From Nemertoderma westbladi (taxonomy: Eukaryota; Animalia; Xenacoelomorpha): DNA of 64,000 nt. Where the stretch lies: contig JAUCBJ010005260.1 in assembly GCA_032718475.1 (NCBI GenBank), positions 1 to 64,000 on the forward strand, given 5' to 3'. Both the position numbers and the translations under genes were made by a program. Positions 2,066-32,215 of the stretch are shown in pieces (position 1 is the stretch's first letter; every line of letters begins with the position of its first letter). The notes below the pieces were generated by a model, which saw nothing but the letters and a program-made list of their open reading frames with translations, was not told the origin of the DNA and made no database searches.

Positions 2066-3008
2066 GTCTTATTATATACGTCAAGTACGGGTAATAAAAT
2101 GTCAAAGTGTCTGAATGTTGAAGTGTCAAACTTACCTAACCGGTACAAATAAATCAACAAGTCAGAATGTCGAAATGTCAAAATGTCGAAATGTACAAAT
2201 GTCAAACTTACCTTGATATATATATATATCATATATATACCCTAACCGGTACAAATAAACTAACAAGGTATATAATAAAATAAGTAGTAATCTAGCCTAC
2301 CGGCTAAATTTGTACGAATAAGTGAGATAACGGTATACGTTAACAAAATATAGATCAACAAGTATAAACAATAGGCCAAACAGCAACGTCTAAAGGGAAA
2401 ATATGTACCAACAACACTACTAATAGACAGTGAAACCCACAAATTTTGAGTACTACTGTGCTTTCTTAAGTTTGAACGACGCGAGTCGTAAAACTTACGT
2501 TCCTTTGATCTTCCAGTCGTACAAATTCCCAAATACAAACCGGACGTGGGTCTTTCCGTTTTTCGGCGGCGCGGACGAATTTATTGTCTCCCAAACTTTG
2601 CGAAAAGCGGTCTAATCCTCGAAGCGGTCCAGAAATGAGTCCTTGAGTCCTGAAAAGGTCGAAGGTGAGAGTTTTACTTCTACGCTTACGAAAAATCTTC
2701 CTAGGTACCGATACAAATTGGTCTTTAAACCCTATGTACCTTTTCAAGTACCGAAAAGTAACACCGCACACACACGGCGTAAAACAAAGTGCTACAAACT
2801 AACTGTTAGCTAGTCAAAGATTAAATACGAAAGTACTAGCTACCCTAAAAGCCTACTGAAGCAGGGGACGTTCTAAATTACTAAATTTACTAACCTTAAT
2901 TTTTAAATATCTCCTACTTTCAATAGCTAACAATTCTAAACTAAAGGAAATAATACTATACACTATGATAGAAGCACTATATACTAATTTATATAAAATA
3001 CTTCCTAC

Positions 3009-5214
3009 TGTAAGGGTCCAGTAGTATACCGCTTACCAGATCCTAGTAACGATGTATCTTACTATGAGACTCTAGTAATGTATACGGGCTTGTACAGTAT
3101 CTGACAACAAATCCCAGTCCAGGATATCTAAACAAACAGATACAGTACACAAACGACTACTGGCGAGGAACAGAGCCTTGTATCTATTCTATGTACGTGA
3201 GCGGGTCGAATGCCTACGTACTAGACAGAAGGATACCTGTCCTCTAACCGGTGAGGCAGATGTACAGTTACAGTAACAGACCAAACTCACGGGAAAACAA
3301 TCCCCGCGCAGCGAATCCTAACTATCACTGACAGTCCTAAATACAGTAACTTGCCGCGGTGTGATTTATATGGTTTATATACGAACTAGTGGGTTAACAG
3401 ACCTAGCGTAACAACACTGACAGTCCTAAATCAGTCGAAAAAAATACAATAACAATACCGTAACAATACCGTTGTCCAGACAAACAACAGTTTAATAACG
3501 AAAGTGAAATACTCCTTATCTTGCCGCAACTAAATCAGATCCTAATTTTACAAATACAGACAATTTCCACCTAAAGTAATGTATAGTACGCTATAGCTAG
3601 TAGAACTTTAAGGGCAATATGTTTTAGGGCGTGTGTGTGTGGGTGTGTTACAAATAAAACAATTTCGTGTAATTCCTTTTACTAGGTTTTAGTGATTTTC
3701 TGACTAAAATGATACCGTGCGCTAGCTACTAAAATAAACTAGTCGCGTTTGTAGAACTTTATACTCACGAATGACGTCAAAGCTCTCTCCTTCCTATCCA
3801 CAACCCAATGGGCAACCACAGTGTTAGTAACTACACCCGTGATCGGCACTAATACCAGATTCTGGTTGTAAGATAAGAATAGGGGTTAATCGCTACCGTA
3901 CGTTAGCTGATCTGGTATACTAATTTAATTCTAGAACTTTGTTGCTGCGGTAGTTAGCAGCAATACCTATCAGTACGTGGCAAGGCGCGGTAGGATATTA
4001 ATAAACCTCCCTAGGCCAAGCAGTGTGCCGGTAGCAGAAATGCTCCTTGCCTGATCAAATAGCTAACTCCAGACAAGGGGGGGGGGGGTACTAATGTACG
4101 TTCTACAAAGCGAACCGGTACCAAACAGTCAGTGCTATGAATCACTAAATTATGGAACGTATGCTGTCCGTACCTAATATGTACTCGCGTACTGACGAAT
4201 GGCAATAGTTCTCACCTGTAGGAAGTACAGGTTAACCCAGGGGTTCGTAGGACTGACAAAGGGGGGGGGGGTTGTCTGGGTATAATTATTTGATCCTAAA
4301 TTTGCGGCGTCCAGTACGATGTCACGCTTACCCTGATCTATAGGTCTTACGGCGGGCAAGGGCGTCGAACAAAGTCTTACCTTCTCACAAAGCGGGCGCT
4401 GCATAGCAAGTGGAGTATTTCGAAGGGGCAAAGGGGGTGCGCGGTCAATCCAATGTGGGCGCTAGCGTGTTGTGGACATCCCTTCCCTGCGTTGCTTACG
4501 GCCTAACGATCTAGGCTGCCATCTCCCTGGTGTTCGGCTGTCCCGAAGTCGGACCAAAAGAAAACATGTCAGGAAATTGCAGTATATTTACAGTTTTACA
4601 AAGAATTATCAAACGAAGTTTCAACAAGAAACCGAATAAACTAATTTTAAAATAATATCAGGGTGGTTTACAAGGGAAGGGAAGTGATAACCGAAGGCAA
4701 ACCGGCCTTTTTATACTAGAAATTGCACATGGAAACTAAACAGAATTTTCCACAGCTTCACCATTGAGCAATGAAGTGCTTCGTGCTCTATGATTGGCCC
4801 AGCTCATCGTTCAACGCAGTCCGGCCCTTACACTAAATCTGGGACATGGAATCCTAACAGAATTTTCCACTGCCTCACATTTGAGCAATAAGATAATTTA
4901 TGCCCTATGATTGGCCTGGCTCATTATTCGCTACGCTGTACGCTTCTCATTGGCCTACCAATTAGCACCACACGAAAATAAATGGCCCCAAAATACAAAT
5001 TTCCCGACTGGGATTCGAACTCGTAACCTACGTAATGTAACCAACGCCTTAACCATCTGACCACTACGCCACGAGAGTACCTAAGGGTTTTATGTGTACA
5101 AATATGAATAGGCATATTACATTACTGTAACTTAATCAAAATACGTCGGATTTTCAAAAGTTTTTACGTTAAAGTTAAACTACAAATGCTACCTTATAGT
5201 GAAATAATTCATCA
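3009..5214 (-). repeat. Predicted 5' LTR of element C (~2.2 kb, TG...CA)
   Basis: Second LTR is outside the window. The end is inferred from ...CCCTTACA followed by GTAGGAAGTA, which is complementary to an LTR-internal 10-mer as in A and B, at a position homologous to the B LTR end. Confidence 0.55.
4990..5070 (-). ncRNA. tRNA-derived Pol III unit in LTR of C (not a functional tRNA)
   Basis: A-box TGGTCAGATGG, B-box GAGTTCGAATCC, downstream TTTT; homologous to the unit in B LTRs; no clean acceptor stem. Confidence 0.6.
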
Positions 5215-7790
5215 ATCTGCATGATTACTTTCTACAGTAGTTGTCGAAATACCAATGGGTGTAATTTTGGTTAGGGTCACCATAGCCACAGATGTTACAT
5301 TCGGCTTAGAGGGATTTATTAATATACGGGGAACAATATTTGAAGCCGTAAGAGGGGTGTTTATTGGTCTGAAAAAATCACTATCAGAGTCAGTTCTAAG
5401 ATCTTTAGTATTTTTAACGGAATTAGCATGATGTTGAGGCGACAGTTCTGGTAGACGATGACGTTCAGCCCGTTCCAAACGTCTTCCGCTTCTAGAGGTT
5501 CGAGATTTAACCGACGATTTATCGAACTCATCGGAGGATGTATAGCAACTAACTTCCTTGGTCTACCCTTGGGTACTTGGTCTACCCTACTTCCTTGGGC
5601 TACGCTTCTCTTCCAACTGGGAATCTGACAGTTGTTTTTCCAGCGATTTAATCTCCTCCACTATATTCTCTTGCTGCTTTTAATCTGCATTCTCTTTTGC
5701 TGAGCCTGAAACTGGATTTCACGTTCCTCTGCTTCCAGGTTCTGTTCAAGTTGATGTTCCTCCGCTTCCAGTTTATGTTTATGTTCCTCCGCTTCCGCTT
5801 CCTGTTTGCATTTTTGTTCCTCTGCTTCCCATTTGCGTTTTTGTTTCTCTGCTTCCAGTTTGTGTTTGCATTCCTCAGCTTCATGTTCGCATTGCAAGCG
5901 TCCGTCCTCTCCCTGGTCTTGTAATTGTTTCAATTTATTTTTATTTTTCTCTAGATCCATCAATAATCTCCACTGATGTTCCATCTCCCGTTGGATATCG
6001 ATATCCTTTAGGAGCCTTATAGTCTTGGGGCTGGATGGAGGGTGGCCATGAAGTCTTCTTATTAGTTCTTCTTCACCTACTTGTTTTATATAACCTCCGA
6101 GGTGTTTACAGATTGCGTTTTCTTGTACCTTTTGAGTCTCGGGTTCAGTCTGTGTGTACCCTTCGACATCTCGGGTATCAATTTGGGATGGATGGATGGA
6201 ATCCAGAACCTCAGGGTGAGGGGGTTCGCCTTGGAAGGAATGGCAGGCGCGTGCCTATTGAGCTAATTTTATTATGTTGTTGTTAGCTGCAGTTTCTATT
6301 ACTGCGGCTCCATTCCTGATGGCAGACTGATGGAAAGGCTGATAGAATTATCCTGATGCGGATTATTCTCTCATTTATGTCGTAAAAGAGAGACGGAAGA
6401 TGATCGGTATTTGGATCCCGTAAGGTAGTTTCAAAATTGGCTATTTGCTTAGCAAAGCCAGTTTGAAATCCCCTTAGGGTCTTCCCCACCTTACTAAGGT
6501 CGGTGGGATCGGCCGGTGCCTTTAATGCTCTCAATTCATCAGGGGTGGCAGAATGCAAGGGGAAAAACTTATCCAAAGATGGATAGTTGTAGTATCGCAA
6601 TACTGATTGTTGCATTTCTGGGACTGACATGGACAGTATTTGGACCTTAGTCCCTTTCTCAGAGGCCCAGTATTGGTCAATGACCTTTAGCAGGCTGATT
6701 AATAAACCTGGGGAAGGGGCCATGAGTGGGTCCATTCCCGGTGGCAGGCTTAAACCTGTGGCTGTATCGACTTCCGTCCGGTTTAAGTCGGAGGTCGCAG
6801 CCACTTGCGGTCGCTCAGATTGTAATTCGAGGCCAGTAGTGGGTTGGTTTGTTCTGGTGACTGTGGGTGGTTGATTTAATTTTGACGGCATAATGGGGTT
6901 TCCTGCTTGATTCGAACTGGAATATTCTGGCTCGGGTAATTCTCTAGTCGGAGATTTGTCTGGGTCGGAATGAGCTGGTATCGCAGTCACGTCAATCGCT
7001 GTCAATCACGTCAATCAGGTGCAATCGCTGTGGGAATTGTCTGAGGCGCTCTTGTTGATATTTGAACGATAAGACATTTTGTTAGATTTAATTTTGGAGA
7101 AATTTATTTTATATTAACCCTTTAAATAATTAGGCCTCCTTATGTTATGTTTATTATTGTTGTTTATTATAACGATATTAAGATGTTACAAATAATTATT
7201 ACAATGCCCAAATAAATAGCACGGAATTAAATTAAATTGATTCGGTCTACAATTTAATTACCAGTAAGCGATTAGTATAAAGCCGGTAATTTATTTGTAA
7301 AAATATTCCATGATAAATATTCAAATTCACCACTTCACCACTTGGAGGATACTATTCCGCTCTTATCACTACAAGCAATACTAATTACCAATAGAGTAAT
7401 GAATTACCTCTTATTGGGTTCTGTGTAAGACAGCCCAACACCCAACAACAGGAGAAGGCTGTATCTGCAGGGTAGTTAACTAAGCTGTAGAATCTATGCA
7501 GTAAGCAACCTTCCTTGTAAGGCGCAAAATCAGTAGGATGGGCAGAGGGTATGTAAGCTGTACAATGTTTTCCTATGGAGGGTAATACAGCCTACCTGAT
7601 TGCAGCAGCCAACTGAGTGGGGGTAATAAGCCTAAGCTGTAGTCAATGGTTACACAGAGGTAGGACAAGTCATGTGACACAATATTGCTTGCAGAGACAA
7701 CAAATAATTCCTCTCAAGTAATATATTGGTTTTGTAATATTACGCTGTCAGAGGTCCAAGTTGTAAATAATGAGTCTGAGGGTGAATACT
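5215..7790 (-). mobile_element. Decayed BEL-related element D, copy 1 (gag-like remnant)
   Basis: Near-identical to 45709-48126. ORF 6283-7005 contains LFYDINERIIRIRIILSAF, similar to A gag LLYQVRERVLRIRLILSAF. Followed by coiled-coil E/K/Q repeat fragments with frameshifts. Confidence 0.7.
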
Positions 7791-8004
7791 ACTACTACTA
7801 GGTCGAGCGAACTCGGACAGTGGAAATGAGATCCTTCCAGGCTTCCCGATTCTCCATAGTTGTCGCAATTTCGTTTCTCCCAAGTTCAGTGTCCCTTTCA
7901 AGTTGATCTATATATGTTATGGCCGGTCGCCCACGACTACGCTCTCCATGAGTTGGTTGCCAGAGAAGTAGATCTGGTATGATCTCGTCTTTACTTCGCC
8001 AGCA
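7788..8004 (-). mobile_element. 3' fragment of RTE-like LINE with (TAG)n tail
   Basis: Minus strand reads WRSKDEIIPDLLLWQPTHGERSRGRPAITYIDQLERDT...MENREAWK*, the typical RTE-type C-terminus, followed by TAG repeats. Confidence 0.75.
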
Positions 8005-10211: not shown

Positions 10212-10789
10212 ATGTATTCAACAATGGGATATTGTCATACCAGGAGGTCCATCTGTGCTCTTTTCATTGCGGTAAACATTAACGCTAGTTACAGTATAAC
10301 ATGTTATAATGAAGTTAGAGTAAATTTTACTTCTACTAATAAGGATTTAAAACAAGAGATGCTTGGCAAATTGGAAAATCTGCGAAACAGCAATCAAGGA
10401 GTATCTGACTTCATTGGGTTCACTACATCTTGGCATGAGAAAGGAATTCGTCATCATTGCGAAGAATGCGGTGAAGCTTTATATCGAAGTATCGGTTTTC
10501 ATGAAGGTAGTGGTGATGAGATCATGATTGATCTATCTGGTGAGAGATGTATTAATAACGGAAGTAGTAACTTGGAAGAACAGTTTTGCTTGGCTCTTGA
10601 TGAAAAGAGTTGCCGACTCCTTGAGGAAAAATTTCGGCAAGACATCACCCTCTCTGGGGATAGTGTCATAGATCACGATCAGGTTCGTACTTTTCGTCAG
10701 TTAAATTCTCTAAGGGAACATATGCTATTCGGGTTATCGATCACTTACGAATCTTGTCAGACGATGTGCTGTGCTGGTGTCTGTCCCCG
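10212..10789 (+). pseudogene. Host gene, 5' part: secreted Cys-rich protein interrupted by element A
   Basis: Signal-peptide-like SICALFIAVNINASYS, then ITCY...CEECG...CCAGVCP; ORF runs into LTR A at 10790. Confidence 0.75.
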
Positions 10790-11981
10790 TGTAAAAGCTT
10801 TTGTGGGATAACTGATTCGTTTGCCTTGTTGGCCAGTTCCCCCCCAGTCGCTAAGAATACTCTCAAAGTGATCTACAGCTAAAAATAGTGCAAGTTACCA
10901 GCTTATTGGCTGATTTGCTGTACGCAGGCATCTGGGCTCTGTTTAATCGGCCAACAAGCCTAGGGAGGTTGCGTCATAGCCTTGTTTTGTATCTCCCAAT
11001 AGAATTTGAGTTATCCTTGATGTTGACCTATCACAGAGTACTGAACTGAAAATTTCCTATCTCACTGCTCTTTCTCTGTGTTGAACGGGAGCTTCGTGGA
11101 ATAAGGGAGTTGGTATCCTCGTATAGAGCAGTAGTCACGAGTTTTTCAAAGCCACGAAAGAACGGCTTTTTAGTGTTTTGTGCTTTCTGCTTTTTAGCTC
11201 AACACTAGTAGGTTTAATCATAAGGACATATATCCTTTAACTGACCAAATGCACCTGATTACTGACTGATTGTCTTAACTCAAAACAAACTGGCACGATT
11301 GATCTGTCAATACTGTGTACTGCTATTTGTTGTCGGTTATTCATTATATTTGTTGATGAATTATTATATTGGAATAACGAGAAATAACCCCGACACCCAA
11401 TATTCTTGATATACCGAAGGTAAGAGAGAAAGGTTACCAATAACGATTGTGACTTATGTTAAAGTGGTTTGAAGTGAATCTAATGTTATTTGATAGACCC
11501 TACATGAGTCAGTCTGTGTTCCTTTTATATGTGACTAAAATCAGTAAAGATTGGCAGATTAGTGTGCAGTATTGTGCAGCATTGTGTGCGAGTGAGTCTG
11601 TTAAAGAAGCATTCCTAAAGAATGCGCCATATATGTGAATTATAATTAAGCCATATCGTTGTGAGTAGTTTAAGTCATAACTCTGTTTATGTAGATAAAG
11701 TGCCACGTCCTAAAGGAACTGTTAATATTCCCGAAGGTAAATAATATTGTCAGAGATTATATAATACTGTCAGTCGAATAATACATTAGGCTTACATAGC
11801 AATAAAATTAAACCGTCGAACCCAATCTCCCTGGAATATCCAGCGGGTGAATGGTCGCGCACGGATTGGTTTCGACTAGTGTAGTGAATCAAATACTTGT
11901 CATAGGCTAAAAAGCGATTTAATATCTAGAAGACATCTTAATTTGGCGGGTTAAACTGCCAAAGGTCTGAAAGCGCGAACA
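10790..11981 (+). repeat. 5' LTR of element A
   Basis: Matches 41828-43019; only two substitutions noticed by eye (about 11250 and 11832). Confidence 0.95.
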
Positions 11982-11993
11982 TTAAAGGATATA
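11982..11993 (+). promoter_or_regulatory. Non-tRNA primer-binding site of A (TTAAAGGATATA)
   Basis: Exact reverse complement of LTR-internal 11229-11240 (TATATCCTTTAA); starts at the first base after the LTR. Confidence 0.7.
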
Positions 11994-12299
11994 GCTTCTT
12001 TGTTGCAGTAAGCAATAAAGTTGAAAGTACCGGTCAACCGGTAAACCTGAACGGTACACCTGTAGGTCAGTAGGCCTAACTGTTCTAACCGGTACTGCCG
12101 TATAAGTACACTAGTATTATTCGATTTGATTGTTGTATACCGGTAGGCTGTTTAGGGGATTAGGGATTGATCACCCCTTATACCTTTATATGGTTTACTT
12201 ATTTCTGTCAAGTTTTATTTATTTGTAGGCCAGTATTGAACAGAAGGCGTGTAAGCCTGATCAGATTGTACAGACGATTTGTAGGCTGAGCTGTTGTCT

Positions 12300-12850
12300 G
12301 ATTGCTGTTAAGTCCGAACGAATTGCAGTGTGTGTAGATCACCTGTCCGATTAAGTACGATTAGGCAGTAGGGGCAGCGAACGCTGTAAGGTAAACCCCC
12401 AACTAAAGAATAAGTCGCACTACTGGGTTAGAGCGCATACTCCCTAATCATTTCGGAGTCTGCATGTCCTGTAGTTTATTTAGGCTTGAGAGTAGTCTGC
12501 CATCGTTTGGTCTGTACTTTGTTTGTGTAAGTCTGTACGGGTAGCGTATAATTTTATTTAAATAATTTGTAGGCTGGATAGTTGTCTGGCTGTTATTAGG
12601 TCTGAACGGATTGCCGCGTGTGTAGATCATCTGTCCGATTAAGTACGGTTAGGCAGTAGGGGCAGCGAACGCTGTAAGGTAAACCCCCAACTAAAGAATA
12701 AGTCGCACTACTGGGTTAGAGCGCATACTCCCTAATCATTTCGGAGTCTGCATATACCGTAGTTTGTTTAGGCTTGATAGTAGTCTGTCAGTGTTCGGTC
12801 TGTATTTTGTTTGAGTGGTTTGTACGCGTAGCGTAATATTTATTATTCAG
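12300..12850 (+). repeat. Tandem ~288-bp duplication in the 5' leader of A
   Basis: Core tgtgtagatc...ggagtctgca is nearly identical at 12331 and 12619. Confidence 0.9.
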
Positions 12851-14161
12851 AGTTTATGCGATTATCCGCAACATTCATTCCCCAAGTTTGTTCCTACAGT
12901 AATTGTGTTTGTTATACATATCGCTATAGTTAAATTAACCCCGGTACTACACGGGCTGCTCGGCGTAGGTAAAGACTGGTGATTTTGTGCATCGGTCACT
13001 CCAGCAGATGCCGTGGTTCTTTTAGCTGTTCAAGTATATTTAACTACTGATTATCTGTTGTACAAGTACTCGTACCTAATTTAGGGTTTAGTGTACAGTA
13101 CTTTCCGAAGTAATTATTGTAGACATTATATCTGTGTTGTAAAGTGGTTGATAGGCACATTCGATTAGCTTTATTAACTTCTAGGTAGGAACACTCCGTG
13201 ATACATAACGTAGAACCTATAGCGATACGGCTATAGGTCGTCAGGCGGTGGTATTTTCCTATCTAGACAACGCAGTGTATTTACTACTACTTATTATTTC
13301 AAATACCGTAGTACCCTGTCCGTTGTAATAACCGGTTTTCTAACCCTTTGTTAGGCTGGTTTGTAGACTTCTTGTAAAAATACCCTAAAAATTCGTATTT
13401 GTGTTTTTGTAAATTTTTGTGTTTATTTAGAGATTGTAATCTCAACCCGAATTGTATGTAATTTGTAGTATTAAGTAACTTAGGTAAATTAGAATTATTT
13501 GTTTTAGTGTCCTATACGTAACACTTCACTGAAAGCGCACCGCTTTGTGTAGTGATTACCCCAGAAATAATAACATTTATTTCAAACATAGACAAAACCC
13601 ATTAAAACGGGTATATATATTATAAATCAAATCTAACGATTTATAAATAGTAGGCCTACCATACAACCATTAGGTCTCAATATCAGTTGGATTACTGCTT
13701 AAATAACGGTAATAAAGTAAGTTAAAGTAACCAAGTAAACCTAAAGTAACAGAAATTCAATTATTTGAAATAATTGACATACCGGTATTTACGATAGGCC
13801 TATTATCTTTATTTCTATAAATCTAGGCTGAAATTATACCGGTACTTGTAATTAATTCTATTTCAGAATTATATATCCTACAAACTGTAAGCTGTATACC
13901 GGTATTCCAGATAGGCCTATTATATATTTGTATATATTTGTGCTAAAATTATACCGGTATTCGGAGATAAACCTAGTCTGTAATAATACTTATATAGTTA
14001 TATATACTATAAGTATACCGGTATTCTAATATATTATATATATATCACGCTACATTGAGTAGCAGTACCGGTAATTAATTATTAGGCTAGCGGTTAATAC
14101 TGAGTTACTAGACTTGCTCGGACTGTAATACAGCAGTAGACATTCAACGGTATACATAGTC

Positions 14162-17100
14162 ATGTCTGATACTAAGCAGAACCTGTCAGACAGTATATTA
14201 GATGTAACTATTTGCGACTCAGATAGAGACGCACAACCGTCTGGTCGTAAATCCAGTTCACCTCCCACTGTGAGGAAGGTCATCCCTCCAGTAGTAATAA
14301 CAGAACCTAGGCTAGTCCAACATCGTAGGTCTATCATAGGCACTCGAGCTCAGGTCAAGCGGGACCAACAAGCAACGGAACAGCAACAACCCGCTAGTCA
14401 AGAACTTATTCCTCAGCGGCCCAGCAGCTCCAGTAGTGAGGATACTGTAGAGCTGACACCCGAGCGCGGAGCGGAGATGACGGATGCGGTTTATACGGAT
14501 CCCCTTCTCATCCTTCCTGCAGCCGTACTCAGCGGGTTATTGATCGCGGTGGAAGAACACCAGATCGATTGGGCGAGGAGTCAACGATCCACTAGAGATA
14601 GTTATGCGGGGTACACGAGGGAAGAATTGAAGTCTATTGTCGAGTCGCAATGGAACTTCCCCGGACCCGGACTCCCGTTTGATTTATCAGAAGCTACCTG
14701 GGAAGACATACACCGGATGGGAGTAGCCAAGGAAACTATCGATCCAGCTGTATGGAAGAGGTCCGCAGCCGGATACGCACAGGGATTCTTCAGCTCTATG
14801 GAGCGAGTAGAAAGACAACTATTTAAACAACCTCAAGGACCTCAAGAGCAGGAACAGCTGCTTTATCAAGTTAGAGAAAGAGTTCTGCGAATTAGGCTAA
14901 TCTTATCCGCCTTTGAGGAGGCTTCTAAAAGAAGACAAGACACGTTGTTGCAAGTTGCCGTAAAGACTTGGCTTCAAAGGGTGAGACGCCAGGTTCAAGG
15001 AGCAGCTCAGTGGAAAGTTCAGTTGGAGGAGCGCTCAACACAAGGAGAATCGACAGACGCTACTTTCTCCCAAGTGGAAGGTGAAGCGACGGCAGAGAAA
15101 CCGCATAAGAAGGATGCCATTGATATCTATCTGTCAGACTATCAGCGTTTTGTGGGAGATGAAGAGTTGAGGAGAAGGCTAGAGGGACTTAGCCCTAATA
15201 GCGAAGGAGCCAAACTTGTGTTAGATGCGATTGATGTGGATAGGTTAGCGGCGAACCAAGCTAAATTCGATGAACAACTCCGCATCGCTAGAGAAAAGGA
15301 AGAACAAGTAAGGAAAAAGCGTATAGAAGACAGAAAGATAGCAGCAGTGGCAGAGGCAGAAAGAAAAGCGGCAGCGGCAGAGGCAAAAGCGGCAGCGGCA
15401 GCGGCAAAAGCGGCAGCAGTGGCGGAAGCAGAACGAAAAGTGGCGGAAGCAGAACGAAAAGCGGCAGCGGCAGAGGCAAAAGCGGCAGCAGCAGAGGCAA
15501 AAGCGGCAGCAGTGGCGGAAGTAGAACGAAAAGCGGCTGAAGAGATCATCCAACTGGAGTTGGAAAATCTTCAAGAGAAGCAAGACGACTTCAGTAAACA
15601 GTTAGCAGCTAGTAATATGCAGATGATGAGTCGATCTACTCCCAAAAGACAAGGGTATACCTCATCTGAGGAAGGTGATACCACCGACACTGAAGGCGGA
15701 AGAAATCGATCTCGCCTAAGCAGACGTAAAAGAACATTCCACCGGCAGAAATTGCCTGATTTGCCTCCAGCTGTTAGAAGGCAACTAAATAACACCAAAG
15801 TAGGTAGTACAGAACCCACAGACCAAATGATTACAATAGAAAGACTCCCTACTATAGTAGATGAGCCTGAAATAAGTAGGCCTGTTTTTGAAATCACCCC
15901 TTCGGTAATGGATACGCCTGTGCTCCCTGAAGCTACCTATAAATTCCCTCTGCATAGCACTAAGCTACCTGTGCCCCGTAGAACTGCCCAGGAGACAGTT
16001 CAGGTCCTGGACCCCGAGCGAAATATTCCAATTTTGTCGCCCGTTGTCCCTCGTCGGCCCGCTACGACGTTGGCGGATCCCGTTTCGGCGGTTGATTGGG
16101 TAGACGAGAGACGGCGGGGGATGGATATTCTCCTCGGAGAGATGAAGGAGAATCGGAGACTCTCCTCCCAACAGGTCCGAGAGTTGGAAGGGACTGTCCA
16201 ACATTTAAAGGGAACAGTGAGGGAAAGTAAGTTAGAGTTGCAAGAAGTGCAGCAAAATATCGCGCTAGAGCGCGATAAATTAGTAAATTTACAAAAGGGT
16301 ATACCACCACCCCCTGTAACAATGTGTCAACCCGTTAGGTCTGAAGTATCTCATGCGCAAGGTGTGGAGCCTACACGCATTTATACTGCTAGCGAAGTAG
16401 AGACTCCTATAGTGAACACTATTAAGGGTAATTATAGACCTGTTGATAATGATATTCCCTATAGAACTGATCATAATCCGAGAAATTTATATACCGATAA
16501 CTCGATATTAAATAGCACGATGGCCCAAGAAAGTTTTACGCGTCAAATGGCTAGAACCGAAGCCCGGCAAGCGGTAAAGGTTGGAGAGATCGTCAAGTTC
16601 AATGGAGATGAGATGAAATGGTTACCTTTTAATGAATATTACAAAGATAACATACAGAACTCTGTACTATCTAATGGAGAAAAACTTAGATACCTCATCG
16701 AGTGCTTGGAAGGATCTCCCAAGTTAATGGCGTTAAAGTTTATTGGACATCCAGACGGATTAAGACAAGTTTGGGATACACTAAACATCAGGTATGGTAA
16801 TAGGAATAATATCGCTGGGTACTTGTATGCCAAGTTAGTAGCGCCCCGAAAGTTTATTAGTAGCGGAATTATCGAGTTTTCCGATGAGATCCAGGAGATC
16901 TGCAGACAATTAGACTGGCTAGGTAAGTCTCATGAGTATCAGAACACTATGGTTATTAGAGCAGTGGCTTCTACTTTACCGAAAGGTGGAGTAGGTACAC
17001 GCTGGGATAAGAAAGTACTATATATGATGGAACAACAACGACGAGACCCTACCATGGCTGATCTCATGTCATTCTTGGATGGTGGTTATTAGAGCAGTGG

Positions 17101-18414
17101 CTTCTACTTTACCGAAAGGTGGAGTAGGTACACGCTGGGATAAGAAAGTACTATATATGATGGAACAACAACGACGAGACCCTACCATGGCTGATCTCAT
17201 GTCATTCCTAGATGGAGAAGTGAAATTGCAACTCCTCAAGCAGTCTCGAGAGAAGACACCGGAAAACAAGGTAAGTGAAAAACCAGTCTCTAGGAGAAAG
17301 GTAACACCAGTGTGTTATACAGACGACGGCGAAAGCCAGACTTCTCAAGGAGAAGATAGCGGGAAGGACACTAATAGATCTTATTATGTCAATAAAATGC
17401 CTAAAGATCAGGTAAGTAAATTCAAGTCTCGAACAAATGACAGGAGGGAACAGGTAAGAAAAACTCCTCCCACGTCTCCCAAGAGAATTCAGGTGAGAAA
17501 ACCCGAAGAAAAGGCAAGTGTACACAATGTGACTCAAAACAAGGTAAGTAACATCAAACCAAAATGTGCGCTGTGCGACGGGACCCACTATTTGAATAGG
17601 TGTGATGAATTTCTAAAGAAATCATTAACGGAGAGACGCGAAGTCATGTGGGATAAGCGGTTATGTTATAATTGCCTCAGACAAGGACACCAACGGCGAA
17701 CCTGTTTCTCTGACATAAGGTGTGCAAAGTGTGGTGCGAAACATCATATCTTGTTGCACGCTGAATTCGATCGAAATAGTCCGAATCAGGTAAGTGATTC
17801 CGAGCTACATGTCCAATTCAGTGATGTGAACGACACTGATCAATCTGAGATGGAAGGATTCTATACAGACGAGTTCTCTGACGAAAACGAATCCTGTTAC
17901 ATGATAAATACCGCAGTGTATCGAGCACTCACATATGAAAGAGATACAGAGAACGACTTTACTCTAACTACTTCTGAACGACAACCACCTTGGAAAGAGA
18001 CATCCTCCAATGTAGGGATCCGAGAGTTTCCTGTGGTGCAGGTAAGGGTTCACGGACCTAAGAGGAGTTATGTAGTGAACGCCCTCCTGGACTCCGGCAG
18101 CACAGGAACATTCATCGATAAAGAGTTAGCCGAAGATATATTTGCTGGACAACCCAAGTTCCAAACTAAGCTCAATATGTCGGGCATTATGCAAGTTTGG
18201 AAATCTACAATAACAGCTGATTATTATGTCGGAGCGTTGTCCACCCCCCAGGACGAATTAGGAGAACACAGCATAAGGTCAGTGAAAATGGTGGCTATAA
18301 AGAACTTCGCTACTACTCAAGCAGACCTTTATGATTGGGACGAGGATGAGAGCATCCAGCATCTTAACATACCTCGATTCCAGACTGATTATCCTGGAGT
18401 GCAAATACTCATCG
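14162..18414 (+). pseudogene. gag: Gag-protease of element A, frameshifted and interrupted
   Basis: ORFs 14162-17092 and 17079-18419: BEL capsid-like KFNGDEMKWLPF...KLRYLIECLEG, three BEL CCHC fingers, protease ALLDSGS. A 133-bp tandem duplication (16951/17084) shifts the frame; element B inserts at ILI|G. Confidence 0.9.
15340..15540 (+). repeat. Coding minisatellite (AEAERKAAAAEAK)n in gag A
   Basis: gcagcggcagaggcaaaa-type repeats. Confidence 0.85.
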
Positions 18415-20337
18415 TATAGAATTATATTCCCTAAATGCCGTGGATTTTCAAAATTTTTATTTTATTCGAATTAACTTTGTAAAGATTGCTTTGAGTTCTC
18501 ATTAGTATTGGTTCTATCTATTGTGTATCTATCGGTCAAGTGGTTCAGTAGCTCAGTTGGTAGAGCGTTGGAAATTATATGTGTAGTAGGTATCGAGTTC
18601 GAATCCTAGTAAGTGCGAATTATTTTTTGTGCAGAATTTCAACTCATTTAAATTAACCGCTACAAATTAATTGCATTTGTCTGTACCAATAAGGCTGTAG
18701 TTATTTGATTGTAACCAATGTCGTGCAAGTTATATATTAGCTGGACCAATAAGCTATCTTTAAAACCTTGTTAGAACCCATAGAACAATCGAGAATTTTC
18801 TCGATTGATTGCAGCACAAATTTAGTATATAAAGGTGCGATTCGTTCATTAGTTATCAATCTCTCAATCTTGTATTTCAATCTATACTTCTCAGATTTAT
18901 TCTGTCGTGCTTAGTTTATTCTCAGATTACATTGTATTATAATTGTATCTTCTGTAATAAAGTCAGAATATTCTCTCAGTTTTTCTGTTTTACTATGAAT
19001 TCACTACGGTGAACAAACTCGGGGACAGGATGGCCAGCTAGAGATCGGGCCGCAGCAATGAACGGGAACATCACGGGAATGTAGACGAGAGACAACCCGC
19101 AATACCATCTAGTGTTATTCGCCCATCGCCTGAAAGGTTAGACAGCGTTCGATCCTTGCTACCTAAGTATAAGACCAAAAGATCAAAAGGTAGACGCAGT
19201 GACACGCTGTAAGCCCAAAATTACATCATAGGGACTGTACTGTCTTGATTCAGGAAAAAACCGCAGTAGACCTTCATATTCCTACGGGGGGAGGGAAAGC
19301 GCAGGCAGATACTAGTACGCAGATAGGACGTAGGCACACCGGTACAAGGCATACACATTGGTTAGGGTGCAGCAAACTGTACGCTTAACTCTTGCTAAGT
19401 ACAGGTGTGTGTGCGACTATTTGCCGTACAACGGTGTCCAGTGCATTAGAACTTGTAGGCTAGGGGGGTTGCTGTGTTTTCACCTGAATTGGGATTGTAC
19501 CGTTCAGGCGGTAGGGCAGTTTACGCTAGGCGCAAAATAAATTGAGGCTATCAGGGATATACTAACATCTACCGTGTCCCCGCCAACGCCCTAATAGGAA
19601 GTTACCCGGACTACCTGGGTGACTAAAATTCTAGATAGGAGCCAGGATAGCTATTAGTACCCGTACGCCTACAGTAGTAAACTAACACATCTCTTCTTAG
19701 TATCAGGGACCTGGTACCTAAAATTGCCGAATTCTGGGCGTAGTATTAACCTTATGCCTGAATTTGAGTCCTGGAAATACGCAAGAGGGGAAGGAACCTT
19801 ACCATTCGTGAGTATTGGACCTACAAGTTACAAATTAGAATATTCGTAAAATGCACACCGTACCCAGTAATTATATATGTGAAGGAGCAAAACTGCTTTT
19901 GACCGTTCAGAATTAACACACGCGCGTTAGAAATTATTTACACCTCAAAATATATAAAATTAACTTAGTCCGTACTGTGCTTTGCCCGCTAGTTAGACAT
20001 CTCCAAATCTGCTCTGTACCTAGCTAGCGTCCTTTCGCCCAACCATATAAATCACACCGCGGCAAAGTATACGAGCCTCTTAGTCCGTCAGTGAGTCAGC
20101 CTGATTTTAGGATTCGCTGCGCGGGATTTTGTTTTATCGAAGTTTGTCCGCTCGTAGACTGTTTTCTGCCTCACCGGTTAAAAGAGATAGATACTGCAAT
20201 ATATTCGCTTACTTAGGGTTTACTGTTTTGGTGAGAAGGTCGGATTTATGATTTGATTTACAAACTTTACAGTAGGATATTGCAGGTATTGTTACCGTCT
20301 CTTCCGATAGTAGGAATAGGCGTATCTCTCCAATTTA
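18415..20337 (+). repeat. 5' LTR of element B (TA...TA termini)
   Basis: Matches 33034-34956; one substitution noticed (about 18980 T vs 33599 C). Confidence 0.93.
18542..18628 (+). ncRNA. tRNA-derived Pol III unit in 5' LTR of B
   Basis: A-box TAGCTCAGTTGG(TAGAGC) 18549-18560, B-box GAGTTCGAATCC 18595-18606, T6 at 18623-18628; acceptor and anticodon stems do not pair. Confidence 0.65.
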
Positions 20338-20348
20338 GTAGGAATATG
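20338..20348 (+). promoter_or_regulatory. Non-tRNA primer-binding site of B (GTAGGAATATG)
   Basis: Exact reverse complement of LTR-internal 19275-19285 (CATATTCCTAC); starts at the first base after the LTR. Confidence 0.7.
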
Positions 20349-21144
20349 TTTTACTGAACTACGGTTTGGTAGGACTAAAGTTATTTGAAAATTTTGTATT
20401 TTGAGGTAAAAAATTTATATTTGATTAGCTAAGTGCTAATTTTTTGAAATAAAATTTGATTTGAACCGCGTGTAAAATATTTTGGAATTGAATACCGGTG
20501 TTTAAAAAGGGTTTAAATACCATATTGTACCGGTACAAAATTTCGTAAAGTAAAACCTAACTCTTTTGTTTTTCAGGATTCAGAACTCATTTCTAGACTG
20601 TAACGGGAGCAAGACCGTGTTTAGCAAGTTTGGGAGATAGATAACCCAACAACTTTGGTTGGGAAAATCGCGTTTCGTCCGCAACGTTAAAAACGGAAAG
20701 GTTCACGTTCGGTTTGTATCTGGGAATCTGTTTTTCTGGAGAATTATTGGAGTGGGTGAGTTCGAAAAGTTGCATAAATAAGTTAGGCATTACCGTATTA
20801 GTTAAAATTATTGTGGGTTCCACTGTCTCAAGTATTTATGCATTCCGTATGATTTCTTTGTTCATTGCTGAATTAGTCCGTATTATTGTATTTAATTTAC
20901 CTTTTGATAACGCATATCGTTATCCGATTTATTTGTTATAAAATTGGCCGCTAGGCTAATTTTATTATATACTTATTCCGTGACATTTATTTGCTGTAAA
21001 ATTGGCCGTTTAGGCTAATTTTATCCATCTGCTATAAAATCGGCCGGTAGGCTAATTTTATAAGACTGTAATTAGTACCGTTTTATACAAATACGGTAAA
21101 CTCGATACTTTGACACTCACTTCACTTGACTTACAACTACCGAA

Positions 21145-24100
21145 ATGAGTGACAAACAAGACTATACGAAGAATACACAAACCGACTATGACTCATGTGA
21201 CGCGGATAAGTCAGCAGCGGAAGAACAACAGGGGAAGACTCGCGAGCCTACCGAACCTACACCGTGTGCGTCACCAGTACATCCAACGGGAGTACCGGAT
21301 GCCGTAGTACGAGGCGACGGCAGGACCGAGGACTTTCTAACTGTTCCGCAACCTAGATACAGGGAAACGGAAATGGTAAGTTCAGCAGGAAGCACAGAGA
21401 GCGTGGTTAGAAGCGTCGGAGGTTACATGGCGCATATAACCAGGAGTATTGGAGAAGACCAACGCATATTAGACGGGTTGACCGCTCCGATGTCTCGATT
21501 CGAGTTCTACACCCTCCAGGTTAGAGTACAGAGTAAAGTATATAAGTCCGTAGATAATCTAGTTGGCCTACAAGATCTAGCTAGACAGAGACAGGACATG
21601 GATACTCAACTTAGAATCCTCGAGAAACTAATGATCACTAGAGAGAAACTGATTCAGTTTAAGTCGACGATTAGACAGATACAACAGGAACAAGCGGACC
21701 AGTTGTTAGGTGAGTCAGTTTCGGACGAATTATTACAGCCCGAGGAAGAACAGGAACTGTACCGACTGGATGGACAATTGAAACACCTGACGGACCACTT
21801 ACGCATGTGCGGCGAAGACGTCGGCGATTTAGAAACCGTGCCGGAATACACGAGGGAAACTCCATTCGCACAAATCGAATCGGCACCGGGAATACTAAAT
21901 CAATCGCTGGTAAGTATTCGTAGCGAAATCTGCGAGGGAAGTATGGTCACGTCAGAAGTTGCTCGACAACAGCAACAGTTCTACAGACAGCAACACGAGA
22001 TGGAAGAACAAGCTCAACTTCTAATGATACAAACAGCAGTAGAGGAAGAGAAAATACGTGTTGCGAATGTAGCGAGAATCTCTCATCTGCAGGAACAAGC
22101 CGAACTCGAAGCGGCCGAAATGGAAAGGTTAGAGTTGGACATTGCCCAACAAGCGGCAGCGGCCGAGTTAGCGCAACGAACGGCAACAGCCGAGTTAGAG
22201 CGACAAACGGCAGCGGCAGCCGCAGCGGCAGAGTTAGAGCGACAGACGGCAGCGGCCGAGTTAGAGCGACAAACGGCTGCGGCAGAGTTAGAGCGACAAA
22301 CGGCTGCGGCAGAGTTAGAGCGACAAAGATTAGTTTCGGAAGCCAGAGTCGAGATGAAGACACGGCAAATAAAAGCCCAACAAGCGATACGACAAGCAGA
22401 GTTCGAGGCGCAACAACAACAAACGGAACAACGAGAAAAGGAAGTTAAACTTCGTTTCGAACTTGAGAAAAGGGCGAGAGAATTAGCCGAAACTAAGGAA
22501 AATCTGGATCTTCTAGCCCGCGATCGATCGATGAGATCTCGTGACGGACATGATTTGGACCAGTTAGAGGTAAGACATCGCCAAATTCAGGAACGGAAGA
22601 AGGAAGGAAGCATAGGAGCACCCGGACGGGAACGACAATTAGTAAAGGACGTGTGTCAACGATTCCCACAGGTAACTCATATGTTTGCACCGGTTACGAC
22701 TAAGGAACCTGTTTCGATTGCGGGTAGTAGTGATATTTCTCCTATCCATGGTGCGACGGAACACAGGTTTGTTATTCCGAACGAGTTTATACCGCCAAGA
22801 GCAACGTCGTCGCCCATTCCGAAAGTCAAGGTAAGTAACCCACCGATTACAGATCGTAGTAGTTTATTAGTCAGACCTGCACTACTGACGACAAAACAGG
22901 TGAGTCCACCTTTGACACCTAAACCCGTTACGCACTACGATTACCCAATGACATTTCGGCCTACAAGGCCTTTGGATTCAAACGCGGTCGTCCGACCACC
23001 ATTCAATCAGTTTACGTCGCAATCTACGACTTCGAGGAAGACTTGTGAGCCTACCGAACAATGGAGAACAGTGGATACGCGACCGGTTCAGTTTACGTCG
23101 CAATCTACGACTTCGAGGAAGACTTGTGAGCCTACCGAACAACGAAGAACAGTGGACGATGTTCCGAAACGAGCCGTTAGAATTCGAACGACGCAACGGA
23201 CGCGAGCACGTCGACCACCATATCCAGATGATAGTAGTACTTCGAGCGAATCGGATTACCCGAAACGCGAGGTATTTAGAACAGGGGCGGCCGATGAATA
23301 TAAACGCGAGCGTTCAGACAACTCCTTTGCAGACAATCCTCCACAGAATACACCAACACAGAAGGCGTTACAACCAACGGACGCAATTAGTACACAACAG
23401 TTCGCCGACATTCTGCGACCAGTTGTCAACAAGTTGGCTCAGATTGAGGAGCGTCTGGAGGAAGTTCAAACCGATAGTTCGAGGAACACCGAATTCGAAC
23501 ACAATAGACACCCGAAGGCACCACAAAGACCGGTACCTTCAAACCCCACATCGTATCAGGGAAAAGCGCCTAGAAGGGAGAACATCAACCAGGTTACCAA
23601 CCAAGGACGCGAAACTCTGAACGTTGCAGAGGAGATAGCGAAATTCGCAGCCAGACAGGGATTGCCGGTACAACAACCACCGAAGTTTTCCGGTAGCTCA
23701 AAACACTGGCATACCTTCGTAGACTATATCGAATCCCAGATCGCCGTGTGCGCCTTTACATCACGGGAGAAGTTCAATTACCTGCTCCAAACGTTGTCAG
23801 GAGAACCTAAACGTTTGGCGGAGACTTTCGTTGGTGTACCGGACGCTTTCGAACTAGCGTACGATCGTTTGACTTCGATATACGGAGGTACAGTGAGTAT
23901 GGCCAGGTCAGTAATAGAGGAACTCTGTAAGGGAGGGGCTATCACTAAACCCGTCGACTTACTAAAACTGGCTGACGAGATTAAGAACGCTATCACTACC
24001 TTAAGATCAATTGGACAACTTGATTACGGGAATACCCCTACAGTTCTATTAAAGATAATAGGACGACTCCACCATCGACTTCGTCGGGGGTGGAGGAAGG

Positions 24101-27100
24101 TCGAATACCAGCGAGAGGAGCGAGGAGGATTCCTAAAATTAGAAGATGTGTACCTTTTAATATCCAGGGAGGCGGTAGTAGAAACTCGATCTAACTATAC
24201 CGACCAGCACATCGTGGCAGAAGGAATCACACTGCCATCCTCCAGCCGACAAAAACCCCAGACAACATCCACAAAGACGGCCACTTATGCCACACCGACG
24301 GAATCACGACAATTCTCAGACGGGAATAGAGTATCTGCGCCCATTGGAACGAAACAGACGAGACAGCAACTCAGCGCCGACTTCAACGGCTGCCAATACT
24401 GCGAACATTTAGGTAAGCGGTATATTGGTCACAAGTTACGAGGTTGTCGACAATTTCGCGAGTTGAACTCAGAAGAACGACGGCTGCAGATACGGCCACT
24501 GGACTCTTGTTGGCGGTGTACGCGACACGGACACGTCCGTAAGGATTGCCCAAATACCGACACTTGTCCATCCTGTGGACGCAACCACGACGGTCTGCTC
24601 CACACAGACAGCCACACGCCGACGAAACGCTTCGCCAGGGAACACCCGGAAGCAGCAGCGAGATGTGATGCGGCTTACCGAAAACGAGAATCGAAAACGA
24701 CTCCGACTTTCGTGACCCATATAGAGGATTGCTTTTCAGAACAATCCGGATCGTCGGACGAAGAATCAGAAGACGACGAATATTCAAATGGAGACGAACA
24801 ACCGTCAATCGCGCTTCTAACCACTGACCAACTGAAGGGATTCAGTGTAATCCCGATTAAGATCACTGGCACGAAGGGGAGTAAGAGGATCTACGCGATT
24901 CTAGATTCAGCCTCATCTCACAGTTACGTGGATGAAAAGATAGCTGACGTCGTAACGGATCTAAGACAAGGTAAACACATCAGTTATACAGTAAGTAGTA
25001 TGCACGGCCAGCGTGCAATACCAGTGACACGAGTTAAGTTGGACTTAGACTCTCTTCTTCCAAAATCGCAACACAGCGAGAGGGAGAGGTCTTTGTTGCC
25101 CTTTAGAGATCTAACCTTTGCTGCCACGAAGGACTTTAGTAACCTACTAGGTCCAGTGCCGGAACAATCTCTGGAGGACCGTAAGTATTTCAGACACCTT
25201 GGTGTACCCGAATGTCCTGTCAATTATAGATCGGTAGCAATGCTGATCGGGACGGACCAATTCAACCTACATCAGGTGTGGGAAACCAGACCATCGGCAG
25301 TTGTAGCGGGAAACGCATACGCCTGCAGAACGCCGATAGGGTGGTATACTCGAGCGCCTGTGCGCACACTAGACGTAAGTGACGAGGAAGACGATGTACA
25401 GAGTACATGTAGTTTATTAACTACAAATTCAATTCATTCCTTTTCACACGACGTGAACCATACTACACTACAGTCGACAAAACATGACAGACGTGTAACT
25501 AGTATGATAAGTCACAAGGAGCAGCTAACCCACCAGGTGAGTTTAGAACTTGGGGAGAAGACGAATCAGCTAGAGATTCCATCGACGACAGATGATAGGC
25601 TTGCGAGTCTACCTACCCCAATAACCTCAACAGTGCCCGTCGACATCGACGATGACGCGTTGAAAATTCATCAGTTGGAACAAGCCGCCTTGGACAAAGA
25701 ATTAACGGAGAAGACTATCAGGTGGTTAGAACAAGATACAGCTGAACCTGGTAGCTACGAACCTTGTATGTCGGAACAGGAGAAACAATCTCTGAAGATC
25801 ATGGAAGAGACTATCCGACAGACGGAGGACGGACATTACGAGGTGGGGATGTTATGGCGTAGCCAAAGTCCTAAACTTATAAATAACTACCCACTGGCTT
25901 TGAGACGTCTACACTCAATACGACAACGTCTATTAAAGGACGAGAAAGCCCATCTGCAGTACAACACTCAGATGGAGACGTATTTGACTGAAGGATACGC
26001 TATCCGAATGACTAACCCGGAGCGAGTGACCGACCAGACATACTACCTGCCACATCACTATGTGAGACATCCCGACAAACCAGATAAGGTACGCGTAGTC
26101 AATGACTGTGCGGCTCTGTTTGAGGGAATGTCCCTCAATAGTGAGTTGATGGATGGACCGAACATGAATAATTATCTTATGGGGGTGATTATGCGCTTCC
26201 GTCAGCGTCAAGTAGCCTTTACTTGCGACGTTGAAGCGATGTTTCACCAAGTAAAAGCGTTAGAGCGAGACAGAGACAGTTTGCGGTTTCTCTGGTATCC
26301 GGAAGGGGACTTAAGTCTACCACCAGCGACTTACCAAATGCAAGTTCGCGTTTTCGGTGCCAGAGACAGCCCAAATTGTACGATGTACGCCTTGAAGCAA
26401 GCCGCTAGAGATCAGAAACATCTGTATGACCCAGAGATAATTAGAATTGTAGAACGTGACTTTTACGTTGACGACGGATTACAGAGTTGCGACACAGTAG
26501 AACGTGCTACAACAGTAGCACATCAATTACGGGACTGCTTGGCGGGCGGAGGTTTTAACCTCACCAAATTCGCCTCAAACAGTGCCGAATTAGTTGACTC
26601 ATTCGGAACTACTGAGCGTGGAGGTGGTGACATAGACCTAGAGTTCGAACCACTACCGACGACTAAGGTGTTGGGGCTCTTTTGGGACCCAAACACAGAC
26701 AACTTTCGAGTGAAGGTGAGACTGGACAGTCAAGGAGACACACTGACCAAGAGATCATGCTTGTCAAAGTTGAGCCGATTGTTCGATCCGTTAGGATTCA
26801 TCAGTCCAGTAATACTGCAAGCTCGCATTTATATGCGCAGTATATGGAAGGATGGACTAACGTGGGACGAGCCGATCTCATCAGACCAAGTGGACTTATG
26901 GAAGACCTGGGAGGCGGAATTGTCTTCGCTAGAGGATTATTTCATACCCAGGGTTTACTTTCCATTACAGAGTACATTTCCTGACAACTTGGAACTACAC
27001 TGTTTTTCTGACGCCAGTGACAACGGTTTTGGTGTGGCAGCGTATTTGCGCAGACAAGTAGAATCGGACGAGTTCGATGTTTCGCTCATTACTTCTAAGG

Positions 27101-30512: not shown

Positions 30513-32215
30513 ATGGAGAAAGGGATACAAGGAGAGCCGAGATGGGGATATGATATCCAAGAGGAGGCAGCAGCGCCATTCGAAAGATTTGGAGCCAAGG
30601 ATTACACTATATTTGGTATAAAGGAATTATCAGAAAGTACAGCGAAGCTCGCAAAGACAGCAATGCCTTTACTCGAGCAGGATTTAGCATATTTCGAGAC
30701 GTGTATCTTCGCTGTGCGGGATCTCTTATCGAAAGACCATCTATGTTTACATTGTTACCCTATGAAGGAGAACGTATCGTGGAGATTATGGATGAATCAC
30801 GGCAGACGCGCGCGCCTATCGGTCACCTTGGTGATGAATTCGAAGTAACTACTACGATCGCCGACGATCCTTTAGAGGAACTTCTTGAGATAGAAAGGAA
30901 CCTCCCGAAGAAATCTCAGACGGAGATTCGACAACTTGAAGCAACAGATGCTATAGTTTGTATACAACCTTCAGAAACCTACCAACCCATAGACCCAGAT
31001 GATTACGATTATAGTATGGGAGGAAGCGCTCGACCGATTGGAGATCTTATATACGAACGAGTGTGGTACCCTGCCAATACGATGTGTAATAAATGTGGCG
31101 TCGCTGGACATCATATGGCAAAGTGCAGTGGAAAGCACATTACTACGACTCAGCTAATCTGTGGATGGTGTGGGGATCAAGGGTCTCATACCTTTTATAC
31201 TTGCTGGAGATTTATGGCTCAATGTACTTACTGCAATATAAAGGGACATCGAGCATCTGAATGCCAACTAAGGGACATACCTTATGAACACGAATCTGTA
31301 AAACTCGTGAGGAAGTTATTTGATGAGTGGGAAGATTTAGCCGACGAACATGTATCGGCACAAAGAAGACGGTTTCCGATGAGAGCGCATCTCGGATTTT
31401 GGGCGGTAAATCCTCAAACGATGATGTCGGAAGGATACATCTCCGCTATGCCTCAGTACGACGAACTTATCGAGGTTGTCGATATTTTGCCCCACGACAG
31501 CGGATTCCGAGTGGTGCGCGAGTATCTGTTACAGATTCACCCGGATAACAAAAACATGTGGAATTTTCAGAAAGTCGTAAATCGTATCACGTATGGTGAA
31601 TTTGATCGTTTCCGAACCGAAAAGCGGAATAAAGGAGCTTGGTTAACCGTCGCATGGGCGTACCGAGCCGCGTTTTACCATAAACGTATACGAGCGAGCG
31701 TATTCGAGGAAGAAGAGGTCCTAGAGGCGACGAATATATCAGCCACTCCGGTTGCGCCGTCTGCACGTCACCCTCGGGAGGACGGGCAGGGTAGGATCAT
31801 ACGGGTCCAGAAGGTGGGCCAACAATTGAAGAAAATTATTAATGTAGAAGAACGCAAGGGAGTTGAGCCGACTATTCGAGTTACTCGGGATACGGTATCA
31901 CTTCCAAGAGAACCGGTAGGAGGATCGGGACATACACCAGCTGATCAACAGGGGGCGCAAGCTACTCTTGGGTCTGCGTCGTCCGCTTCTCACGCGTTCC
32001 CAGACGTTCTACCAACTGTAGCGACGACTGATCGGTCACGAGGAATTGGTCGAGGTTTTGGGATGCCAAATAGACGAATTTGCGAGGAAATAGTTGCACC
32101 GTCTCTCAACGTCCCAAGTAAACCAGTGACTCGCCCCATTAGTCCCATATCGCGAGCAAAGTCACCTGTGCGCAGTTTTCGAGGACGCGGCAGGGCTCGA
32201 TCTACTAAGCGATAA
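30513..32215 (+). CDS. Accessory ORF of B after pol: triple Zn-knuckle protein with basic tail (two overlapping frames, 30513-30848 and 30701-32215)
   Basis: CNKCGVAGHHMAKC, CGWCGDQGSHTFYTC, CTYCNIKGHRASEC; homologous to the C-terminal part of ORF 39860-41749; branch-like ACTAAC (30451) and pyrimidine-rich AG (30481-30482) upstream. Confidence 0.75.

Follow-up and report, generated by a model that had tools for sequence, protein, structure and literature searches.

How does a long terminal repeat (LTR) retrotransposon start reverse transcription when the sequence behind its 5′ LTR does not look like the binding site of a tRNA? The question is raised by contig JAUCBJ010005260.1 of the xenacoelomorph Nemertoderma westbladi (assembly GCA_032718475.1), whose positions 1 to 64,000 of the forward strand, here called the window, hold two nested elements, A and B, and the 5′ part of a third, C. 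By their domains and nearest proteins, we assign all three to BEL/Pao. Members of this family, the Belpaoviridae, are described as having an 18-nt primer-binding site (PBS) for tRNA(Arg) or tRNA(Gly), LTRs of 0.2–1.2 kb and genomes of 4.2–10 kb, and their replication is called poorly understood (PMC8742986). A preliminary description of the window had stated that BEL/Pao elements are usually tRNA-primed, in agreement with the profile of the international virus taxonomy committee (ICTV; PMC8742986), and had proposed that the primer of A and B is a fragment of RNA from the element's LTR. Self-priming is still the best reading, and we add to it the element C, sequence changes on both sides of the pairing and matched variants among B-family copies.

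The ends on which this proposal depends are secure. Element A has a 5′ LTR of 1192 nt with TG..CA ends (10790–11981, plus strand) and a 3′ LTR at 41828–43019, flanked by the target-site duplication CCCCG (10785–10789 and 43020–43024). Self-comparison of the window places element B inside A, with a 5′ LTR of 1923 nt and TA..TA ends (18415–20337, plus strand), a 3′ LTR at 33034–34956 and the duplication CATCG (18410–18414 and 34957–34961). The two LTRs differ at 2 of 1192 positions in A and at 1 of 1923 in B. Because the LTR pairs are nearly identical and both elements have 5-bp target-site duplications, A and B inserted recently and their ends, as the preliminary description had held, are fixed. 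A polypurine tract, GGAGCGG, precedes the 3′ LTR of B (33027–33033, plus strand), and the same 7 nt stand before that of A (41821–41827), so that direct LTRs, target-site duplication and polypurine tract are all present in both elements. In contigs of two sequencing runs, X1 and X3, the match to the window breaks off after 10789 and different sequence follows, a sign that this site lacks A in those samples.

The first 12 nt behind the 5′ LTR of A (11982–11993) are the exact reverse complement of 11229–11240 within that LTR, and the first 11 nt behind the LTR of B (20338–20348) are that of 19275–19285. These LTR-internal segments, here called oligos, are the candidate self-primers; they recur in the 3′ LTRs at 42267–42278 (A) and 33894–33904 (B). 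Within the 64 kb each is found only in the two LTR copies of its own element, and one extra base leaves no match. Pairing stops at the LTR boundary, since the base past the oligo does not pair with the last base of the LTR (C/A in A, G/A in B and A/A in C). If the start of the PBS is shifted by 1–8 nt into the LTR, the complement shrinks to 4–8 nt, and each PBS matches the LTRs of the other elements over only 5–7 nt. The oligo and PBS of A are unlike those of B and C, and it is the geometry that is common, with the oligo lying 741 (A), 1052 (B) and 1209 nt (C) before the end of the LTR, a refinement of the earlier 0.7–1.2 kb. The TGG expected of a tRNA PBS is missing at all three boundaries; within 60 nt of the LTR end none occurs in A or C and one in B, at +30. 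In priming, all three elements thereby depart from the ICTV profile, in which the PBS is complementary to the 3′ end of host tRNA(Arg) or tRNA(Gly). ARAGORN found no tRNA in the window.

Element C occupies minus-strand positions 1–5184 and is related to B, with only its 5′ part present; inside the window it holds only gag (1–2065, minus strand, open to the window edge and 45% identical to that of B), and its 3′ LTR lies outside. The 3′ end of its 5′ LTR (3009–5184, minus strand, TG..CA) was placed by likeness to B and by a contig of run X5 that ends at 3009, the 5′ end by its TG only. The 10 nt behind this LTR (2999–3008, minus strand) pair with 4227–4218 of the same LTR, and one G-U pair comes in addition. 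Seven pairs nearest the boundary are common to B and C, and pairs 8, 9 and 10 have changed on both sides. Just below this PBS, at 2950–3015, contigs of X1 and X3 contain joints that suggest copies with another PBS tail and an inverted repeat.

Pairing of the observed length is rare in controls. Mock PBSs at internal positions of the elements reached it in 0 of 6383 cases for A, 6 of 12646 for B and 2 of 2958 for C, and LTRs shuffled by a second-order Markov model did so in 4, 2 and 8 of 5000, respectively. The boundary-anchored pairing is real and an origin by chance very unlikely. Variation among B-family copies was followed in three runs (X3, X4 and X6) over 18700–20700. Among 40 of the 45 variable places, the only ones within the two 11-mers of B are 19277 T>C in the oligo and 20346 A>G in the PBS. 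These positions are pairing partners, and the two variants combined replace a U-A pair by C-G. Both make up similar shares of the summed depth in X3, with 29373/116114 (25%, 23 contigs) at 19277 and 11182/47779 (23%, 5 contigs) at 20346; X6 carries the variant at 19277 and has no cover at 20346. We put the odds that a second variant hits the partner position with the fitting letter by chance at roughly 1 in 20–30. In Tf1 cDNA every cycle copies the PBS anew from the primer (PMC11042837). If the same applies here, linked changes of oligo and PBS are to be expected, and two-sided changes that keep the pairing, as in a Tf1-type system, are what B/C pairs 8–10 and the unphased pair 19277/20346 present.

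The proteins of B place it in BEL/Pao. An uninterrupted frame of about 2,900 codons (21145–29856, plus strand) encodes Gag, protease, reverse transcriptase (RT) with YVDD, RNase H and integrase, and this order after Gag is the one that BEL/Pao requires. It contains DUF1759 (E = 1.9e-10), Peptidase_A17 (9.5e-42), an integrase zinc finger and DUF5641 (4.2e-20), and alignment with relatives shows that the acidic RNase H residues D-E-D-D are kept. The RT-RNase H region matches 557 proteins, the best 120 of which all carry Peptidase_A17 (PF05380). Among the matches listed, the top identity is 43%, to BEL/Pao polyproteins, and the named sources are molluscs, echinoderms, corals, a hemichordate and a lancelet, that is, mostly marine invertebrates. 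Its domains and nearest proteins are those of BEL/Pao and not the RT and integrase of the Ty3/gypsy chromovirus type; B may work like Tf1 yet sits outside the Tf1/sushi group. While B resembles the Belpaoviridae (Semotivirus) in domain order, Peptidase_A17, DUF1759, DUF5641 and YVDD, it departs from their profile in having no tRNA-type PBS, LTRs of 1.9 kb with TA..TA ends, a length of 16.5 kb and an extra frame with CCHC knuckles. Relatives with DNA context were sought in viral contigs by protein and by a 27-base motif common to B and C, with 0 loci found; metagenome contigs gave one locus (1276 nt, 29% identity), which was not used.

Self-priming is reported for the Tf1/sushi group, as the preliminary description had said; it has also been predicted outside that group, for the TAR lineage of plant Ty1/copia elements, as well as for Tcn1 (PMC6317226). 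In Tf1 and Tf2 of S. pombe, Tj1 of S. japonicus, Tf1/sushi elements and Tcn1, the PBS after the 5′ LTR likewise complements the element's own LTR and no tRNA (PMC4600332, PMC5341516, PMC6317226). The differences are that Tf and Tj elements belong to Ty3/gypsy and use the 5′ segment of their mRNA as primer, whereas the elements described here are BEL/Pao, have LTRs of 1.2–2.2 kb and carry the oligo 741–1209 nt upstream of the point where the LTR ends; in B and C, a TATA box and two splice donors precede it. The cut that releases the primer has been shown for Tf1 and is predicted for A, B and C. The TAR lineage (Houba, Osr-1) shares with them at least 10 nt of LTR complementarity at the PBS and differs in its copia domain order and its plant hosts; there, too, self-priming is a prediction (PMC6317226). 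In the accessible text of a survey of metazoan BEL/Pao elements the words primer, PBS, tRNA and self are absent (PMC3118150), that of the Sinbad paper has no discussion of a PBS (PMC554778), and the accessible parts of PMC3601003, PMC5443660, PMC13524379 and PMC8220671 contain nothing on BEL priming. The literature searched, which did not extend to Repbase, older C. elegans papers, supplements and most subscription journals, yielded no paper giving self-priming for BEL/Pao. The BEL-like element Cer7 of C. elegans is said to encode its own tRNA-like primer.

Signs of a promoter and of splicing hint at where the primer lies within the transcript. In B, a putative promoter with a TATA box (18826–18833, plus strand) lies below three CCAAT boxes (18686, 18715 and 18746), and C has the same layout with its TATA box at 4715. 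Donor-like sites follow at 19137 and 19190 in B and at 4380 and 4331 in C, and an acceptor stands before gag at 20576 and 2650, respectively. One contig of run X4 joins 19136 to 20577, corresponding to a GT..AG intron of 1440 nt (19137–20576, plus strand) that contains both oligo and PBS; the joint was not seen in runs X1, X3, X5 and X6. Since it removes both partners, the spliced RNA of B cannot serve as template. The oligo of B and C lies 450–490 nt below the TATA box and also below the splice donors, and none of the three elements has a TATA-like word about 30 nt above its oligo. Because TATA box and donors, and in B the joint, all lie above the oligo, the primer is probably cut from inside the transcript, unlike that of Tf1. 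The simplest reading is that an RNA retaining the PBS starts at the same promoter, which would place the primer 430–470 nt from the cap. Depths of contigs do not allow the parts of a gene to be ranked, and those in X4 are a hint only: past the donor at 19137 they fall from about 5,500 to 900–1,600, below the oligo they stay near 900 for the greater part of the LTR, apart from one bin without cover, between PBS and acceptor they are 46–82, and past the acceptor they are 360–500. Another X4 contig leaves the LTR of B at donor 19137 and continues in sequence at 54479, just past a pyrimidine tract with CAG and 20.7 kb below the corresponding donor of the 3′ LTR (33756), and the LTR of B may drive spliced transcripts into neighbouring DNA. 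Segments at 18549–18605 (plus strand) and 5071–5012 (minus strand) are possibly a captured RNA polymerase III promoter.

From their sequences, A, B and C are likely to prime reverse transcription with their own LTR RNA in one form or another. They are best read as a variant of Tf1-type self-priming in another superfamily, probably with an internal primer; to the specific form in which the oligo is cut from inside the transcript we give a probability of about 0.5. In this scheme, a spliced gag-pol mRNA, exemplified by the joint in B, would start above the oligo and contain neither oligo nor PBS, whereas an RNA from the same promoter that retains the PBS would fold back over 0.75–1.2 kb. A cut 3′ of the oligo, probably made by the element's RNase H, would free the 3′-OH, and in B and C the primer would keep a 5′ tail of about 430–470 nt. 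The predicted cut points are 11240/11241 in A, 19285/19286 in B and 4218/4217 on the minus strand in C. As in Tf elements, for which such cut-and-prime steps have been described (PMC5341516, PMC4600332), minus-strand DNA would start at the LTR end, extend as far as the cut and then jump to the 3′ LTR copy, which requires an RNA whose end in that copy lies below the oligo. The only AATAAA in the LTR of A, a candidate poly(A) signal, lies below the oligo (11801–11806, plus strand). Plus-strand synthesis would recopy the PBS from the primer and thereby keep oligo and PBS in step. Element A, without RT, would borrow the enzyme. RNase H is reportedly required for self-priming of Tf1. Rfam gave 0 matches in 1–22000, and therefore no known ribozyme lies near the cut. 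Two contigs of X3 depart from the LTR of A at 11239, a single base short of the predicted cut, and return to it at 11318 or 11326; the first of these joints could be due to a short ACTG repeat.

A further step is more tentative. Splicing in the LTR might sort the RNA into an mRNA lacking the PBS and a self-primable genome whose primer is cut from mid-transcript, with the donors either skipping to the acceptor before gag or using an acceptor just above the primer. We consider this sorting somewhat doubtful. If true, splice-sorted internal priming would be a mode distinct both from tRNA priming and from the 5′-end fold-back of Tf1.

Several points weigh against an internal primer or against the evidence assembled for it. 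When the folded RNA begins at the oligo, the oligo-PBS helix has a probability of about 1 in A and B and of only 0.29 in C, and in nested folds it is gone once 19 (A), 45 (B) or 25 nt (C) of upstream sequence are included. Seven decoy helices all keep a probability of 0.37–1.0 at −45. The loss of the helix speaks mildly against a long 5′ tail, an objection blunted by the inability of nested folding to combine crossing helices: in A, a 10-bp helix of 11189–11198 with 11906–11915 crosses the oligo-PBS helix and may explain its loss there. Nor is the duplex extended on the 5′ side of the primer, where shuffled flanks did as well in 668, 512 and 1369 of 2000 cases, no better than chance. Folding of the whole leader leaves the models unseparated. 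A TATA box above the oligo is missing in element A, and C has no AATAAA below its oligo, with two ATTAAA instead; no loose end with poly(A) is found among 12 of the 80 loose ends. The boundary of C was chosen partly by its likeness to B, and because B and C are kin they provide one further comparison and no independent origin. The variants at 19277 and 20346 stand on separate contigs and are hence unphased, and their shares disagree in X4 (775/775, or 100%, against 19.6/63.2, or 31%, one contig each). None of the seven runs is listed as RNA; X4 is on record as 'DNA?', its RNA nature being deduced from the GT..AG joint, and the run data are contigs, which cannot show RNA ends, cuts or primer-cDNA junctions.

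The strongest competitor of the internal primer is a self-priming exactly like that of Tf1, which we regard as possible but on balance unlikely. The genomic RNA would then begin at the oligo or at most about 30 nt from it, and the TATA promoter would make spliced mRNA only. Its 5′ end might stem from a second start or from trans-splicing at an acceptor-like site 21–31 nt upstream. Tf1 and Tj1 provide the precedent (PMC4600332), Tf2 employs alternative starts (PMC5341516), and folds retain the helix only with a near start. A pyrimidine tract with TAG (11181–11197, plus strand) lies 31 nt above the oligo of A and is the best of 35 YAG sites in the LTR; the best of 87 in C (4247–4269, minus strand, AG ending at 4253) lies 25 nt above the oligo, and a site of middling score stands 21 nt above that of B. 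These acceptor-like sites were noticed after the fact, and among the six joints listed none leads into B 19254. A start close to the oligo is also at odds with the missing TATA-like word in all three elements, and a helix of high probability is nothing specific when it begins at the 5′ start, since six of the seven decoys reach at least 0.9 as well.

Priming by a host RNA, a tRNA fragment or small RNA, with the LTR-PBS helix only hiding the PBS as a switch for regulation or packaging, appears improbable. It would agree with the host tRNA(Arg) or tRNA(Gly) that ICTV gives for the family (PMC8742986), and half-tRNA priming without TGG exists in Ty1/copia (PMC6317226). Three different host RNAs would be needed, however, or four if the B variant is counted, and the element's own LTR would have to mirror each of them exactly up to the boundary; moreover, the PBS would be reset to one sequence in every cycle.

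Slightly less probable still is that splicing itself builds or frees the primer, either because an exon junction forms it or because a splicing intermediate or a 2′-OH branch provides the priming hydroxyl. What speaks for it is found in C, where TCCTAC, identical to the last six letters at the primer's 3′ end, directly follows the best acceptor-like site; joined to a GC donor-like site at 4580, which ranks first of 107 donor-like positions in C, this acceptor would yield 11 exact pairs. This junction was found after the fact and ranks third of 867 positions overall, while the consensus donors of C, 4380 and 4331, add nothing to the six letters. Pairs spanning a junction reach at most 7 in A and 6 in B against 12 and 11 contiguous ones, and a junction-built primer is rejected for these two elements, C being a weak lead. 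Moreover, the covariation in B concerns the contiguous oligo, and the bases at and past the oligo end are not conserved.

Very improbable is a genomic RNA without poly(A) tail that ends at the oligo of the 3′ LTR and primes with its own 3′ end. The geometry permits this and no duplex would have to be cut, but the three oligos share no 3′-end signal, the sole AATAAA of A is 560 nt further down, and an X4 contig covers 19217–19407 across the oligo end, although contigs cannot show ends. Chance complementarity is close to refuted: short AT-rich words do recur in long LTRs, and the window has 20 perfect pairs of at least 10 nt at a spacing of 650–1000 nt, that of A included, but the pairing is boundary-anchored in three of three elements, the null rate of each being about 1 in 1,000 or lower, and is joined by the partner variants.

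If self-priming holds, priming without tRNA extends to a third LTR superfamily, and such elements would presumably be freed from control via tRNAs and tRNA fragments. An internal primer would need a cut within a long RNA duplex region and would shift the positions of U3, R and U5. Such elements would be overlooked or wrongly placed by annotation tools for which a tRNA PBS is obligatory.

Element A has kept little of its pol region. Its frames for gag, with DUF1759 and three CCHC-type knuckles, and for protease are split by B (14129–18419, plus strand), and a remnant of an RNase H C-terminal motif lies at 35204–35350 (plus strand). No match to RT or integrase was found across the whole of A with ten relatives as queries, and A must therefore be copied in trans. 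Behind pol, A has two accessory frames in one reading frame with a stop between them (37481–41749, plus strand), and B has one with CCHC knuckles (30554–32215, plus strand) that is 26% identical to 39803–41749 of A (319 aa, E ~1e-21). Almost no relatives of these frames were found for either element. That they help to export or package unspliced RNA is a guess. A function as cutting enzyme has no support: residues 30–360 of the B frame have no homologue among proteins of 304–968 aa, Atlas matches stay below 0.9 and are to CCHC proteins, and the frame of A has 2 weak matches.

The LTR of B ends in TA..TA despite its clean 5-bp duplication. Two more PBS-like words occur in its 3′ part, at 20272, after TTTACA as at the boundary of C, and at 20310 (9/11 match). 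An older end in CA may have lain 66 nt upstream of the present LTR end. Elsewhere in the window, a repeat of 2.5 kb with 93–98% identity adjoins the 5′ end of C (5213–7793) and recurs beyond the 3′ end of A (45707–48126). A LINE-type RT frame lies at 49032–50459, with a second partial copy at 63613–64000, where the window ends, and minus-strand frames at 51382–53859 match RT_RNaseH_2. A frame of 1151 aa at 56557–60012 has no Pfam match and neighbours frames at 54952–56028 and 59973–60584; from its motifs we take it to resemble the protein-primed DNA polymerase B of Polinton-like elements. An AT-rich frame at 62178–62735 has a weak Pfam match to TBP (E = 3.7e-08).

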